From Escherichia coli (GTDB lineage: Bacteria > Pseudomonadota > Gammaproteobacteria > Enterobacterales > Enterobacteriaceae), in the NCBI RefSeq assembly GCF_003790525.1, contig NZ_CP033635.1: a DNA stretch of 64,000 nt; one strand, 5' to 3'. Position numbers and translations under genes: made by a program. The notes below the pieces were generated by a model that had not been told where the DNA came from, did not search any database, and saw only the letters and a list, made by a program, of their open reading frames with translations. Position 1 is the first letter of the stretch. Each line of letters opens with the position of its first letter. Below, piece after piece: positions 27,213-32,855 of the stretch.

Positions 27213-28754
27213 TTATTCATCTCTCGCGGTTTTCTCTTCAGCCGCAAGCTGTGTCAAAAAACTCTTCAATAAAATAAACACTACGCCGCAAAGCGGTAGT
27301 CCGGCCAGGATAGAGACCGTTTGTAGCGGTTGCAGACTTTGCGCATCAAGAAGATAGAGTGTGATTGCGACGATTCCGGTCATAATCAACCAAAATGCCA
27401 CGTTCCAGAATGCCGGTTCACTCTCACTATCTGCCCGTTTTTGCGTCGCAAAACCGAGGGCATAACCCACAGTACAGTGTCCGGTAATATATGAAATTAA
27501 TGCTATAGCCCCAAAAGCAACCAAAAACACCTGACTTGCGGGTAGCTGCTCCAGTAAACGAGAAACGACAACGCCTCGCCCTTGTTCGTTAAGTATGGGA
27601 ACAAAATCGATGACATGAGTTGTCTGCAACGATAAGCCGAAATTAGCCAGTACCATGTAAAAAACCATGCATCCCAATGAACCTGCCAGAGTTCCACATA
27701 CAATCAATTGCCGGATCGTCCTTCCTTTTGAAATACGGGCGATAAATAAACCGAATGGGATGGCATACACGACCCACCATGAAAAATAAAATACGGTCCA
27801 CATCTGTGGAAATCCGCTACGACCAATAGCATCGGTACTTAAACTCATCGCTACAAAATTTTGCAGCATCAGGCCGAAACCATCAATTGATTGGTTAAGT
27901 ATAAAAGCTGTCGGTCCACAAATCAGTATTGCCAGTAGCATAAAAATATCGGCACGAATATTCCAGTTACTGGCCCATGCCACACCTTTTTTAAGTCCAA
28001 AAAAGAGAATTAATAATGGCACTAGCGTCCAGATAAAAATAACCATGACATTGATAAACTGCCCGGCAGGATCCAGATGGAACACATGGCAAAATACGGC
28101 AGAAATCATCGGCGTTCCCAGCGCCAGAGACGTTACCGCGCCGCCGAGCAAACCAAACATGTAGAAAAAATTCACACAATGCCCGCAAAAACCATCAGCA
28201 CGTGCCCCCAGACACCCACGGCATAAATCACTGACCTTTAATGAGTTCGTTTTCTTAACATGCATAAACCAACCAATGGGAACGGCACAAATCAGATACC
28301 ATGCCCATGCGGACGGCCCCCAATGGAACATGCCATAAGCAGAGGCCCAACGAGCAGCCTGAGCGCTTCCTGCTGTCGCGCCAAAAGGCGGTTGCTGAAT
28401 GATCCAAATCCACTCTACAGAGGCCAGATATAACAAGCTGCCCCCCGTTCCAGAAGTAAAAATAAGTCCAAGCCAGGTTAACAAGCTGAAGTCAGGCTTT
28501 TCTCCCGACTGACCTAACAAGATATCGCCATAACGTGAGAAGGCCAGCCACAGACAACAAAGTACAACCAGAAAAGTCATGACCAGAAAAATCCCGCCCA
28601 TTTCCCAGGTTAAAAAATGATGTATTTTATTTATATACCGGCTGGTATCTTGTGGATATATCGTCAAACACAGAATGATTACCGCAATAAATAATATTGC
28701 TGGGATAAACACATTCAGTTCAATCAAAGAAAAGCGTTTTTTTAAATATTGCAT
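27213..28754 (-). CDS. BCCT-family transporter (betaine/carnitine/choline type)
   Basis: 513 aa from ATG 28754 (AGGAG upstream); contains the BCCT signature-like stretch WTVFYFSWWVVYAIPFGLFIARISKGRTIRQ. Confidence 0.7.
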   Translation of the reverse strand: MQYLKKRFSLIELNVFIPAILFIAVIILCLTIYPQDTSRYINKIHHFLTWEMGGIFLVMTFLVVLCCLWLAFSRYGDILLGQSGEKPDFSLLTWLGLIFTSGTGGSLLYLASVEWIWIIQQPPFGATAGSAQAARWASAYGMFHWGPSAWAWYLICAVPIGWFMHVKKTNSLKVSDLCRGCLGARADGFCGHCVNFFYMFGLLGGAVTSLALGTPMISAVFCHVFHLDPAGQFINVMVIFIWTLVPLLILFFGLKKGVAWASNWNIRADIFMLLAILICGPTAFILNQSIDGFGLMLQNFVAMSLSTDAIGRSGFPQMWTVFYFSWWVVYAIPFGLFIARISKGRTIRQLIVCGTLAGSLGCMVFYMVLANFGLSLQTTHVIDFVPILNEQGRGVVVSRLLEQLPASQVFLVAFGAIALISYITGHCTVGYALGFATQKRADSESEPAFWNVAFWLIMTGIVAITLYLLDAQSLQPLQTVSILAGLPLCGVVFILLKSFLTQLAAEEKTARDE

Positions 28755-28777
28755 TTCAGTCTCCTGAATGTTTTCAT

Positions 28778-29002
28778 TCAATGAGGACGAATATTTCGCC
28801 GTTCCTTTTTCATGTGTTGCAATTGTCGGGAAAGGCGTAAAGAAAAAAAGGCGCAAATAAGTGAAAGTACCGCAATACAATACAGAGCTAAACCACACTG
28901 ATGCTGTTGCAGCATGAACAGGAATATCCCCAAAAAGAGGCCGCAGAGAACTGTGGTTATCCAGTAATTGGCACTTAAGTGCTCCAGGTCATCATCCCTC
29001 AT
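28778..29002 (-). CDS. Small two-span membrane protein upstream of the BCCT transporter
   Basis: 74 aa from ATG 29002, with AGGAG 7 nt upstream; two hydrophobic segments; 23 nt upstream of the BCCT start on the same strand. Confidence 0.35.
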   Translation of the reverse strand: MRDDDLEHLSANYWITTVLCGLFLGIFLFMLQQHQCGLALYCIAVLSLICAFFSLRLSRQLQHMKKERRNIRPH

Positions 29003-29054
29003 GGTCTTTCTCCTGCAAGGCGCAGAGAGGCTTTCAGCTCTCTGCGCCTTGTTG

Positions 29055-30419
29055 TTATGCCAGACGTACGCCCTGCTGTTGCAGCGTGTTTTGCAAATCA
29101 GGAATAGCAACCTGACGCACGGTGCAATGTTGCTGTAGCGAAACCACGGCGGCAGTGCCTGCGGCCTCACCGGTAACGGCACAACACATCATGTTGCGCA
29201 TAGAAGTATGTGCAACTACGCCTGCGGAAATACAGCGACCGGCGACCAAAAGGTTCTCCACTTTTTGTGGCACCAGACAGCCATAGGGGATCTGAAAGAA
29301 ACGCCCGGTCGTTGGCAAAATGAGATAACCGGAACCATCAATAAATTCCGGGAAAATCCCTACACTGTCCGAACAACGCCCCTGATTAAGGACGTAATCA
29401 TCAGCAATACGTATTTCCCCCTCAATAAGCCGTGATTCGCGTGTACCCAGCGTGGCGCCAAAATTGCGTAACCGTACATTTTCAAAGCCCGGAACATAAT
29501 GGCGTAGAGCGTCAATTGCCCATAATGCTTGCTGCCTTCCGGCGATTTCTGCTTTGGTTAAATCGAAGACATCGGTACAGTCAAAACCAAAGGCGTACAC
29601 CATATTCATCTGAAACGCTTCGCCGCTTTCAGAAAAGGTTGACCAGGTTCCGGCAATCGCCTGGGCGTCGCCTGGAATCACACCATCCTGCTGCGCCCGG
29701 GTAAAAATATCCTCCATATAAGGGCTAAACATCTGGTCTTCTTTGCCCGTGGTTTGAATCGTCCAGTTTTTTCCCCAATCCGCGTAGGTCGGCTTAAGTT
29801 CTTCCGCAACAAAACGGTTAAAGCGCGCCACATCGACACCTGCGCAACTGAACATCACGGTGACGCCCATCAGTTGGTCCTTTCCCCGTTTCGTCCAGGG
29901 CGCGCCTGCACGAGCAGCAATATCAGCATCCCCCGTGCAATCGACGATTCTTTTCGCCAGAATTGCCCCTCGTCCTGATTTGTTCTCGACAATAACACCG
30001 CATAACGTATCCCCTTCCTTGATCACATCCACAACCCAGGAGTGATATAACGGCTCAACGCCAGCTTCCGTTATCATCTGATCGGCAACAACTTTAAATC
30101 CTTCAGTATCTATAACTTCGCTAATTGACTGAGGTTCTGGTCGCGTGAAGCCCAATGCTCGCGCGCGGCCTTCATATTCACGACAAATCCCTTCACAATC
30201 TTCCGTCCCCGGATGGCGATACCAGGCAAAACTTTCCACACCAACCTGCGTCAATACGCCGCCTAGTGAGCCGTAACGCTCAACAATCATGGTTCTGGCA
30301 CCTAGCCGCCCCGCCGCTATCGCCGCCGTTAATCCTGCCGGACCGCCCCCGATAACCAGAACGTCCGTTTGTGCAATGACTGGCGTTTGCCGTGCACTTT
30401 CATTAATCATGTCCACCAT
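29055..30419 (-). CDS. FAD-dependent oxidoreductase (paralog 2)
   Basis: Start chosen at ATG 30419 (GGGGGAA upstream); the track ORF starts at TTG 30449, overlapping the upstream MFS gene; VLVIGGGPAGLTAAIAAGRLGARTMIVERYGSLGG fold; paralog of 18516-19886. Confidence 0.7.
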   Translation of the reverse strand: MVDMINESARQTPVIAQTDVLVIGGGPAGLTAAIAAGRLGARTMIVERYGSLGGVLTQVGVESFAWYRHPGTEDCEGICREYEGRARALGFTRPEPQSISEVIDTEGFKVVADQMITEAGVEPLYHSWVVDVIKEGDTLCGVIVENKSGRGAILAKRIVDCTGDADIAARAGAPWTKRGKDQLMGVTVMFSCAGVDVARFNRFVAEELKPTYADWGKNWTIQTTGKEDQMFSPYMEDIFTRAQQDGVIPGDAQAIAGTWSTFSESGEAFQMNMVYAFGFDCTDVFDLTKAEIAGRQQALWAIDALRHYVPGFENVRLRNFGATLGTRESRLIEGEIRIADDYVLNQGRCSDSVGIFPEFIDGSGYLILPTTGRFFQIPYGCLVPQKVENLLVAGRCISAGVVAHTSMRNMMCCAVTGEAAGTAAVVSLQQHCTVRQVAIPDLQNTLQQQGVRLA

Positions 30420-30436: not shown

Positions 30437-31705
30437 TCAGGATGCGCAATCCGCATTGTTTTCAGTGATTTCATTGACTTGATTTTTACTTTTACGATTC
30501 ACACGCTGGAGGACCAGTGCGGCGATAAGGCCGATGAATGCGCAAACCAACATGAACAGGAAAACATCCTGATAACCGGCAATACCCGGTTTGCGGTCGA
30601 CCATATTGCCCACCATCGTGTAGCAGTAGATTTCCGGGAAATAGGTCAGTAAAGAGATCAGACCCGCAGCAGTCCCTGTGACTTTTGCCGGGATCCGAAT
30701 CTCATCAATAATTGAGAAGAACACGGCATTCGCAGAGTAAATAAACACGCCCAACGCAACCATATTCGCCAGCGCAATAGTGACGTAGCGCGACTCACCG
30801 GGCAGGAAGAAATAAACGGTAGTAAAGACAATCATGCCGATAAAGGCGTAAATCATAAAACGCGTGCGTGACGCACAGCGGTCGGCCAGTTGTCCGCCAA
30901 TTAATCCCCCCATCGCAAATAACACATAGGCGCGAAGAATACTGGCAACTGCCACTTCCGATTCGCCCATATGCAGGATCTGCGTGAGATACGGCGTGAC
31001 CATGCCAAAGCCGATATAAATTGACCACATACAAAAGGTCACAACACCTGCCAGCCAAACCGTCGGCATTTTCAGCACGAATGCCATATCTGCCAGACGG
31101 AAATTCGCTTTATCTTCGCTGTGCGTTTCATCCTGACAAACAAACCAGGCTAAAACACCGGCCAGAATAGTCACTACGGAATAAAAAATAATTGTCGCCC
31201 GTAAACCATCAACACCTTCGCCAAATTTGGCAAATACCGGCACGGAAAGAAATCCCAGTACAATGGAGGTTAATCCCTTACCCAGAAACCAGTAACCGTA
31301 TAAGCGACCTTGTTCTTCGCTGGTTCCCAGGGTACGAATAATTCGCACACACACGGCCCAAAACGTAAATACGGTTGTAACAGCCCAAAGTGCATGTAAC
31401 AAACAGATCATAGTATACGAGGGGAAGGTCGCATAATAAAAACCACTTATCCCGGTGGAAATTAATGAAAAGGTCATTAATTTACGTGCAGAAAATCTAT
31501 CGGCAGCCCAACCGCCAGGTAGATATAATAAAAAGTTCACCAGACCATAGGCTGTCATTAGAAAACCAAGTTCAGCATTAGTCGCTCCTGTAGCCTGCTG
31601 CATCGCGTCGTAATAGGTTTCCCGTAAATAAGGCAATTTATATATTGCACTTCCGGCAATACCACATAACGCCAGCGTGATCCAACGTTTCCAGTTACTG
31701 GTCAT
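30437..31705 (-). CDS. MFS transporter
   Basis: 422 aa, 12-span hydrophobic profile; immediately upstream of FAD oxidoreductase paralog 2 on the same strand. Confidence 0.75.
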   Translation of the reverse strand: MTSNWKRWITLALCGIAGSAIYKLPYLRETYYDAMQQATGATNAELGFLMTAYGLVNFLLYLPGGWAADRFSARKLMTFSLISTGISGFYYATFPSYTMICLLHALWAVTTVFTFWAVCVRIIRTLGTSEEQGRLYGYWFLGKGLTSIVLGFLSVPVFAKFGEGVDGLRATIIFYSVVTILAGVLAWFVCQDETHSEDKANFRLADMAFVLKMPTVWLAGVVTFCMWSIYIGFGMVTPYLTQILHMGESEVAVASILRAYVLFAMGGLIGGQLADRCASRTRFMIYAFIGMIVFTTVYFFLPGESRYVTIALANMVALGVFIYSANAVFFSIIDEIRIPAKVTGTAAGLISLLTYFPEIYCYTMVGNMVDRKPGIAGYQDVFLFMLVCAFIGLIAALVLQRVNRKSKNQVNEITENNADCAS

Positions 31706-31772: not shown

Positions 31773-32855
31773 TTAAAGTCCCAAATGATGTGCAGTTAAA
31801 ATTGCGCAAAGAACGTCCTGCGCTGTTACTACGAATGGCATATTATGGATAGTTTCCCCTTCAGCAGTCGCTGCTTCAGCCACTGCCCGTAATTTATCTT
31901 TATTAATTTCCTTCACGCCTAACATATGAAGATTTGTCGGCAGACCAACGCTATGGCAGAAATTGAGTACGGTTTCAATTTCCTCCTGTGGTGCGTTTTC
32001 CAGTACGAGCTGTACCAGGACGCCAAATGCCACTTTTTCACCGTGGTAGCAATGATGGCATTCCTCCAGTTGCGTCATGCCGTTATGAATGGCATGAGCT
32101 GCCGCCAGGCCGCTACTTTCAAATCCAATGCCGCTAAGATAGGTATTAGCTTCGATAATATTCTCTACCGCTTTGGTGCTAACACCTTGTTCAACCGCGA
32201 CTTTTGCCTTATAGCCATCTTCCAGTAGCGTGGTATAACAGAGTCGGGCAATAGCCAGTGCCGCCAGTGTCGACGCCCCACCTGCCATTGTGGCTTTTCC
32301 TGACGCCTGATTGGCTCTCGCCTCAAACCAGGTTGACAATGCATCTCCCATACCGGCCACCAGCAGACGCACTGGCGCGGCTGAAATGACGCCAGTATCC
32401 ATAATCACCATATCCGGGTTTTTCGGGAAAAACAGATATTCGCTAAACTGGCCTTCCGGGGTGTAAATTACTGCCAGAGAACTGGTTGGCGCATCTGTGG
32501 AAGCAATTGTCGGCACCACCACTACCGGAATTTTTTGGTAATACGCTACGGCTTTTGCCGTATCCAACGTTTTACCGCCGCCAATACCAATAACGACATT
32601 ATATTTACGCTGATTAAATTTCTCACGAATTCGAGAAATTTCATTTTGCGAGCATTCACCGCAAAAAACATCAAGATCCGCAATAATGTTTTCTCTTGCA
32701 AAGCTCTGGCTTACTCTGTCACCAACCAGACCGGTCACAAATTCATCTGCAATAATTAATGGTTCTGTTCCCAAACTCGCCGCATATGTAGCAATATTAT
32801 CCAGAGAACCATTTCCCTGGATATATTTAGCCGGACTTATAATAATCTTATCCAT
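31773..32855 (-). CDS. Glycerol dehydrogenase-like (iron-containing alcohol dehydrogenase family, GldA paralog)
   Basis: 360 aa; GIGGGKTLDTAKA and GFESSGLAAAHAIHNG motifs as in GldA. Confidence 0.8.
   Translation of the reverse strand: MDKIIISPAKYIQGNGSLDNIATYAASLGTEPLIIADEFVTGLVGDRVSQSFARENIIADLDVFCGECSQNEISRIREKFNQRKYNVVIGIGGGKTLDTAKAVAYYQKIPVVVVPTIASTDAPTSSLAVIYTPEGQFSEYLFFPKNPDMVIMDTGVISAAPVRLLVAGMGDALSTWFEARANQASGKATMAGGASTLAALAIARLCYTTLLEDGYKAKVAVEQGVSTKAVENIIEANTYLSGIGFESSGLAAAHAIHNGMTQLEECHHCYHGEKVAFGVLVQLVLENAPQEEIETVLNFCHSVGLPTNLHMLGVKEINKDKLRAVAEAATAEGETIHNMPFVVTAQDVLCAILTAHHLGL

Follow-up and report, generated by a model that had tools for sequence, protein, structure and literature searches.

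A small predicted membrane-protein gene in the GimA2 operon of Escherichia coli and its gammaproteobacterial family

Just upstream of a BCCT transporter gene of E. coli, in the 64,000-nucleotide stretch of DNA analyzed here (the window), lies a short ORF that raises two questions: whether it is a gene, and if so whether its product serves the transporter. The original prediction described a 74-aa ORF with a Shine-Dalgarno sequence and two hydrophobic helices. All of these are present, on the minus strand, and the predicted distance of 23 nt from the stop codon to the BCCT gene is exact (BCCT ATG at 28754). The translation, of 74 aa, is MRDDDLEHLSANYWITTVLCGLFLGIFLFMLQQHQCGLALYCIAVLSLICAFFSLRLSRQLQHMKKERRNIRPH. 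Feature coordinates are collected in Table 1.

The GimA2 operon and its small ORF

In E. coli strains that cause meningitis or are pathogenic to birds, GimA is a virulence-associated island that has been studied intensively. This ExPEC island has 14 ORFs in four operons, one of which, GimA2, is cglDTEC (PMC2878320); as published, GimA2 has these four named genes, and the small ORF is not one of them. The 2.3-kb segment studied here is 100% identical to E. coli SMS-3-5 and was found in 246 of 5,426 complete E. coli genomes. Its annotated neighborhood comprises hypT, nhaC, ibeA, dhaR, gcl-hyi-glxR-glxK, the BCCT gene, an FAD oxidoreductase gene, an MFS gene, a glycerol dehydrogenase gene, dhaK-dhaL-ptsP and iraD. 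With its site between yjiD (iraD) and yjiE (hypT) and its ibeA, dha, gcl and cgl genes, the locus is the GimA2 operon (cglDTEC) of the ibeA island. CglE belongs to PF12831, which we take to be the Pfam family expected for IbeA as well. For CglC the nearest named NCBIfam model is a CaiT-type antiporter, whose cut-off is 541 bits and for which CglC scores 392.

Judged by gene order, the small gene is an unnamed fifth gene of GimA2, the operon running cglD, cglT, cglE, small gene, cglC. It is predicted to be co-transcribed with cglDTEC and translated from its own Shine-Dalgarno sequence; in the aligned orthologs too a purine-rich stretch (AGGAG, GAGGA or GAGAA) lies 5′ of its ATG. It is on the same strand as its neighbors, 52 nt past cglE and 23 nt before cglC, and our scan called no promoter-like or terminator-like site on that strand in the cglE-cglC interval. 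The shared strand, the short gaps and the lack of a called promoter or terminator support the proposal, made at the outset, of one transcription unit with the BCCT gene.

Table 1. Features of the small-ORF locus, in window coordinates.
Feature	Coordinates	Strand	Remarks
Glycerol dehydrogenase gene cglD	31773..32855	minus	first operon gene, divergent from dhaK
MFS transporter gene cglT	30437..31705	minus	RefSeq annotation
FAD-dependent oxidoreductase gene cglE	29055..30419	minus	PF12831 E=5.8e-97; RefSeq CDS; directly upstream of small ORF
Intercistronic stem-loop	29017..29050	minus	between cglE stop (TAA 29057-29055) and small-ORF Shine-Dalgarno; 13-bp perfect stem, 8-nt loop
Shine-Dalgarno AGGAG for small ORF	29010..29014	minus	7 nt 5′ of ATG
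Small ORF	28778..29002	minus	ATG 29002-29000, TGA 28780-28778; 74 aa
T7 homopolymer in small ORF	28843..28849	minus	codons 52-54; apparent site of recurrent 1-nt frameshift
Spacer, small-ORF stop to BCCT start	28755..28777	minus	23 nt; holds BCCT AGGAG 28765-28761
BCCT transporter gene cglC	27213..28754	minus	513 aa; PF02028 E=1.8e-118; RefSeq WP_001199692.1

The stem-loop that precedes the small ORF is conserved as a structure in six taxa, with 11 consensus pairs, seven of which show compensatory changes. An Rfam scan of the operon region, stem-loop included, gave no matches. We rejected the stem-loop as a canonical terminator because it has no U-tract and was not called by the terminator scan; going by its form, it could be an mRNA 3′-end stabilizer, an attenuation point or a palindromic protein-binding site.

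Coding status and predicted protein

The exact protein is public as a ‘hypothetical protein’ (e.g., UniProt A0A0G9FL30), and two of its alleles occur on at least 1,000 contigs each. Some genomes have a RefSeq CDS at exactly the small-ORF coordinates (WP_001204018.1 in APEC O1, and others); of 60 E. coli genomes sampled, about 19 have this CDS and the rest, SMS-3-5 included, lack it. The locus_tag series of NC_010498.1 has a gap at RS24440, between RS24435 and RS24445, that may be a removed entry.

Could the ORF be without a functional product, having arisen by chance in a 300-nt intergenic region or serving as a uORF whose translation tunes BCCT expression? Such a reading would fit the want of RefSeq PGAP annotation in about two-thirds of the sampled genomes (again including SMS-3-5), the fact that no Pfam or NCBIfam family covers the protein, and a frameshift allele present on 348 contigs; it is opposed by strong purifying selection on the amino acid sequence. 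Orthologs with 68–79% amino acid identity were found in E. albertii, Pluralibacter and two further enterobacterial lineages (L005/L006 and L007). Across the five enterobacterial lineages pairwise dN/dS is 0.045–0.139, with dS from 0.9 to saturation, and the comparison of synonymous with non-synonymous differences gives Fisher P values of 8e-9 to 1e-13. Variable sites fall 32:20:54 over the three codon positions, and the small-ORF frame is the only one open across all seven orthologs, whose sole length difference is an in-frame gain of two codons in L005. The six alleles compared within E. coli are all intact; among their polymorphic codons 10 are synonymous and 5 non-synonymous. The small protein evolves about 2–3 times faster than its neighbors (dN 0.12–0.23 vs. 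0.04–0.13 for BCCT). Also against a non-functional ORF, homologs at 27–47% identity retain length, motif and two-helix layout in two orders, and family members occur without any downstream gene to regulate. Since the sequence is under selection, it is very unlikely to be non-coding or to act purely as a leader peptide, and we allow these readings hardly any probability. By the pattern of its conservation, the small ORF is a genuine conserved protein-coding gene.

The frameshift allele (P0017) encodes 63 aa and ends ‘...CAFFLYAFPDNCNT’, so that the basic tail is lost. The 225-nt length is kept in 60 of 60 sampled complete genomes; because all of these are full-length, the frameshift may in part be assembly error.

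A longer BCCT ORF of 561 aa, from GTG 28898 (27213-28898, minus strand), would share 121 nt with the small ORF in a different frame, and was rejected. Its upstream frame is open for 213–234 nt in Escherichia only, closing after 33–75 nt in other genera, which marks the extension as a gene-caller trap.

The small protein has hydrophobic segments at residues ~15–31 and ~38–55, each reaching a maximum of 2.6 in a 15-residue Kyte-Doolittle window, and net charges of −3 at the N-terminus, 0 in the loop and +6 at the C-terminus. AlphaFold2, run on a 32-sequence family alignment, gave helices at residues 2–33 and 38–71 joined by a 4-residue turn, at moderate confidence (mean pLDDT 69.6, i.e., about 70). 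Hydropathy, charge and model all place it in the generic class of small two-span inner-membrane proteins. By the positive-inside rule, the acidic N-terminus and very basic C-terminus imply an N-in/C-in arrangement, and the protein is accordingly a predicted two-helix inner-membrane hairpin. A holin or type-I-toxin reading was set aside because the genes lie inside or at the ends of catabolic operons.

The family and its genomic contexts

Searched exhaustively with an HMM, 1.84 billion representative proteins yielded 12 matches of about 75 aa (E 5e-13 to 5e-4), and a wider profile search yielded 60 clusters at E≤1e-9, all ‘hypothetical’. As these searches delimit it, the family is narrow, uncurated and gammaproteobacterial, with about 60 clusters at 90% identity, and its genera are Escherichia, Pluralibacter, Citrobacter, Serratia, Vibrio and Photobacterium. 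Membership was taken to require a length of 69–86 aa (most have 72–84), N-Y-W-x2-T at the start of TM1, [CS]-[GAS] four residues on, and a second TM, most members having a basic tail as well. In the 32-sequence alignment the family motif is H-x2-A-N-Y-W-x2-T, with N12, Y13, W14 and T17 invariant; the His three residues before NYW is near-invariant, and TM1 has the stretch [CS]-[GAS]-x-F-L-[GAS], of small-xxx-small type. The E. coli protein fits this definition of the family.

Scanning one genome per species with a degenerate DNA motif gave 10 true members, all of them from Vibrio, Photobacterium, Citrobacter sp. NCU1 or Pluralibacter, together with 13 Bacteroidetes and 2 chance matches; a metagenome motif scan added almost only E. 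coli alleles. The Bacteroidetes matches (L021, L022, L024, L025 and others) are signal-peptide-bearing proteins of about 340 aa with H-x2-[AV]-N-Y-W-x2-T-x3-G. We rejected these secreted proteins as family members; they are unrelated, and the motif string is coincidental.

Pfam and NCBIfam scans of the small protein and 12 relatives returned only sub-threshold matches, apparently compositional. The best in Pfam was DUF4131 (E=0.0043), for which the E. coli protein scores 15.3 bits against a cut-off of 31.6. Neither the E. coli protein nor any of the 12 family members matched PF04341 (DUF485/YjcH) at E≤1, and DUF997/YhdT and DUF4212 were likewise not among their Pfam matches at E≤1. A sequence-profile search of the PDB with the small protein found nothing below E=0.5.

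We compared 19 non-redundant lineages: BCCT is directly downstream of the small gene in six, a DeoR gene is directly upstream in nine, and four have neither. Most members with resolved neighbors lie in glycerol/dihydroxyacetone/glyoxylate or sugar catabolic clusters, and their immediate neighbors vary; it is such clusters, and not BCCT genes as such, that the family accompanies in most of these contexts.

The order MFS, FAD oxidoreductase, small ORF, BCCT is found in E. coli, E. albertii, Pluralibacter, L005/L006 and L007. In L011, whose small protein is 39% identical, an FAD oxidoreductase gene, a hairpin and the small ORF are followed at the contig end by a start resembling the BCCT N-terminus, and this is probably a sixth BCCT-syntenic lineage. 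E. coli, E. albertii and Pluralibacter share an identical 23-nt junction. Conserved synteny with BCCT homologs had been named in advance as the check on the original prediction, and its absence elsewhere as grounds for discarding it; with FAD oxidoreductase, small ORF and BCCT in this order in five lineages and probably a sixth, all enterobacterial, the prediction survives on this count. All BCCT-adjacent loci are versions of one enterobacterial island and so make up essentially one evolutionary observation.

Several of these loci have local peculiarities. An element of about 195 bp (L007:8230-8440) stands between the small ORF and BCCT in L007, splitting the 23-nt junction; across 5,421 E. 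coli genomes it has 19,703 unannotated intergenic matches, with a median of 3 in each genome, and from these multi-copy intergenic matches we take it for an ERIC/IRU-type repeat. In L005/L006 cglE is split into three ORFs (6584-7945, in two independent assemblies), and in E. coli EC28 (L047) it has an internal stop; the small ORF is intact in both despite the damage to cglE. In EC28 the BCCT gene is annotated as intact, but in L005 its aligned ATG carries a mutation and the ORF called is shorter. A gut metagenome contig (L057:9807-11877) has GimA2 intact to about codon 61 of the small ORF, which then continues in frame into unrelated sequence as a 435-aa fused ORF, BCCT being missing, as a result either of rearrangement or of chimeric assembly.

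Is the small protein, then, an accessory subunit that assembles with CglC in the membrane and is needed for its stability or activity, as has been proposed for DUF485/YjcH with ActP-type permeases? We hold this to be unlikely. [quoted passage not shown] The BCCT-adjacent cases, however, all belong to one enterobacterial island type, adjacency does not extend over the phylogenetic range of the family, and the members from Vibrio, Photobacterium, Serratia and Citrobacter NCU1 are not beside BCCT. The 254 nt upstream of the Serratia BCCT ortholog (51–61% identity across fragments) contain no small ORF, the repeat parts the two genes in L007, and the protein has no homology to DUF485, DUF997 or DUF4212. 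A literature search for BCCT accessory small proteins found nothing relevant. The accessory-subunit role first suggested is thus possible in E. coli and unsupported family-wide, BCCT being adjacent in 6 of 19 lineages. Because relatives elsewhere follow DeoR or stand alone, the small protein is probably not a dedicated BCCT subunit.

The oxidoreductase is the other immediate neighbor in E. coli. That the small protein is a membrane anchor or electron-transfer partner docking soluble CglE to the inner membrane would account for its gene adjoining a PF12831 gene in 7 of 7 enterobacterial GimA2-type loci, including that of Citrobacter sp. NCU1, which has no BCCT in 14 kb and in which the small gene lies between gldA and the FAD oxidoreductase gene, with order reversed. 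We nevertheless judge this highly unlikely: the Vibrio and Photobacterium small-gene clusters have no PF12831 enzyme, the Serratia oxidoreductase is about 8 kb away, the small ORF is intact beside the cglE pseudogenes of L005/L006 and EC28, and, one His apart, the small protein lacks a conserved cofactor-ligand motif.

Outside the GimA2-type loci the neighbor in nine lineages is the DeoR gene, whose stop overlaps the start of the small gene (ATGA or TAATG) in 8 of 9 loci, including four Vibrio lineages, Photobacterium DA100, Serratia and L015; in L012 there is a gap of 19 nt. The overlap implies coupled translation. Loci with the pair are L019:7294-8228, L051:9273-10234 and L123:8294-9225, with L030, L038, L039, L015 and L052. 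These regulators are divergent and short (229–243 aa), the best named NCBIfam model scoring about 74 bits against a cut-off of 331. Recurring in Vibrio, Photobacterium and Serratia, the pair of DeoR and small gene has the look of a conserved module of two genes.

A cluster of gldA, DHA kinase, MFS, Zn-ADH, a 274-aa protein and DeoR genes, with the small gene last, is found in V. qinghaiensis, V. aestuarianus, a Vibrionaceae MAG and Photobacterium sp. DA100. E. coli CglD is 73% identical to the gldA product of the Vibrio cluster, and CglT matches the MFS protein there along its full length at 28% identity (E=3e-52); these identities indicate that the E. coli and Vibrio clusters are homologous. 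The 274-aa protein (L019:6381-7205) is conserved and has no Pfam or NCBIfam family. In Vibrio sp. ES.051 the small gene follows LamB and DeoR genes. DeoR also directly precedes it in Serratia sp. L9 and two further contigs; in Serratia sp. L9 the small gene is followed by gcl-hyi-glxR-dhaR-BCCT-FADox, with nhaC convergent, in a GimA-like island, so that it lies behind DeoR and 6.5 kb from BCCT. In V. ruber and L016 the small gene ends a TRAP/EIIB/epimerase sugar cluster; a 111-aa protein (L016:8359-8694), conserved and without a Pfam family, is encoded directly after the small gene in L016, L017 and L018. In several Photobacterium species the small gene is solitary, and altogether about one-fifth of contexts have no catabolic cluster (Photobacterium, the gene being solitary beside IS elements, LysE or H-NS genes).

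These loci suggest another possibility, that family members are primarily membrane partners of the divergent DeoR, for example tethering or releasing it according to substrate or transport state, with the E. coli copy re-wired or orphaned on loss of DeoR. This too we regard as improbable, in spite of the direct upstream position of DeoR in 9 of 19 lineages from two orders, with overlap in eight. The Vibrio and Serratia DeoR proteins share 32% identity (E=3e-30), compared with 26% between the Vibrio protein and an unrelated neighboring DeoR; between Photobacterium DA100 and V. qinghaiensis the DeoR proteins are 44% identical and the cluster enzymes 88–95%. Against this partnership, DeoR homologs are missing both from the 64-kb window and from the remaining GimA2-type loci, and the adjacency may reflect only the 3′-end position of the small gene in its clusters. 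To our knowledge, control by a small membrane protein has not been described before for any DeoR regulator. A more specific version gets only a slim chance from us: the family would be the membrane half of an unrecognized two-gene module with a DeoR-type repressor, coupling it to the membrane or to the transporter status of a catabolic cluster of glycerol/DHA/glyoxylate type, and the module would have been broken up in ExPEC GimA and the small protein recruited beside CglC.

A proposed modulatory partner within a catabolic module

The reading that we prefer, tentatively and as falling just short of probable, is that the hairpin encoded in GimA2 acts as a modulatory partner within the catabolic module and is not a dedicated family-wide BCCT subunit. 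In this proposal an acidic N-terminal juxtamembrane helix would end in the invariant Asn-Tyr-Trp, followed by TM1 with a small-xxx-small face (G21xxxG25), a 4–6-residue periplasmic turn, TM2 and a strongly basic C-terminal tail. From this anatomy and the gene neighborhood, an intramembrane helix-helix contact with another protein of the module would be the likeliest mode of action. The nearest candidate partners in E. coli would be the transporters CglC and CglT; for Vibrio and Serratia the obvious candidate would be DeoR, co-translated stoichiometrically with the small protein. By position CglC appears the most obvious E. coli partner, and the family pattern seems to speak against a dedicated BCCT subunit; on that pattern a regulator-linked role would deserve about equal weight, and a link to the FAD oxidoreductase some weight. 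The conserved, tight 23-nt junction with cglC counts against the modulatory reading insofar as it is also expected of a dedicated transporter subunit, as do the one-fifth of contexts that have no catabolic cluster, the 348 contigs with the frameshift allele, the frequent dropping of the gene by RefSeq and the no more than moderate confidence of the AlphaFold2 model.

The original prediction compared the ORF with the DUF485-type gene yjcH. The arrangement is analogous, in that YjcH/DUF485 is a small two-TM inner-membrane protein encoded just upstream of, and co-transcribed with, a secondary transporter, its function being inferred mainly from adjacency; DUF485 (PF04341) shows cofitness with its permease (bioRxiv 10.1101/072470). 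The small protein, however, is not a DUF485 member and has no sequence relationship with that family (no PF04341 match at E≤1). The partner of DUF485 is an SSS (ActP-like) permease, whereas the gene downstream of the small ORF encodes a BCCT protein (PF02028), of a different superfamily branch, and, unlike DUF485, most of the small-protein family is not found beside the supposed transporter partner. KdpF, AcrZ and MgtS/MgtR are short hydrophobic proteins that bind, stabilize or tune larger transporters (PMC12648545), the same general logic as that proposed here. These have a single TM, 29–49 aa and demonstrated partners, whereas the small protein has two predicted TMs, 74 aa and candidate partners only, and is not homologous to any of them. 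The best place for it is among the small inner-membrane proteins of transporter/catabolic operons, as a new uncharacterized member of that general class.

The small gene alone does not change the understanding of BCCT transporters. For E. coli it means that the GimA2 gene list (cglDTEC) omits a conserved, selected gene for a predicted membrane protein, which reference annotation treats inconsistently and which bears on the design of non-polar cglE and cglC mutants. For the family it means the addition to the catalog of an uncurated set of small membrane proteins with a clean sequence signature, and two testable partner hypotheses, a transporter or the DeoR regulator.
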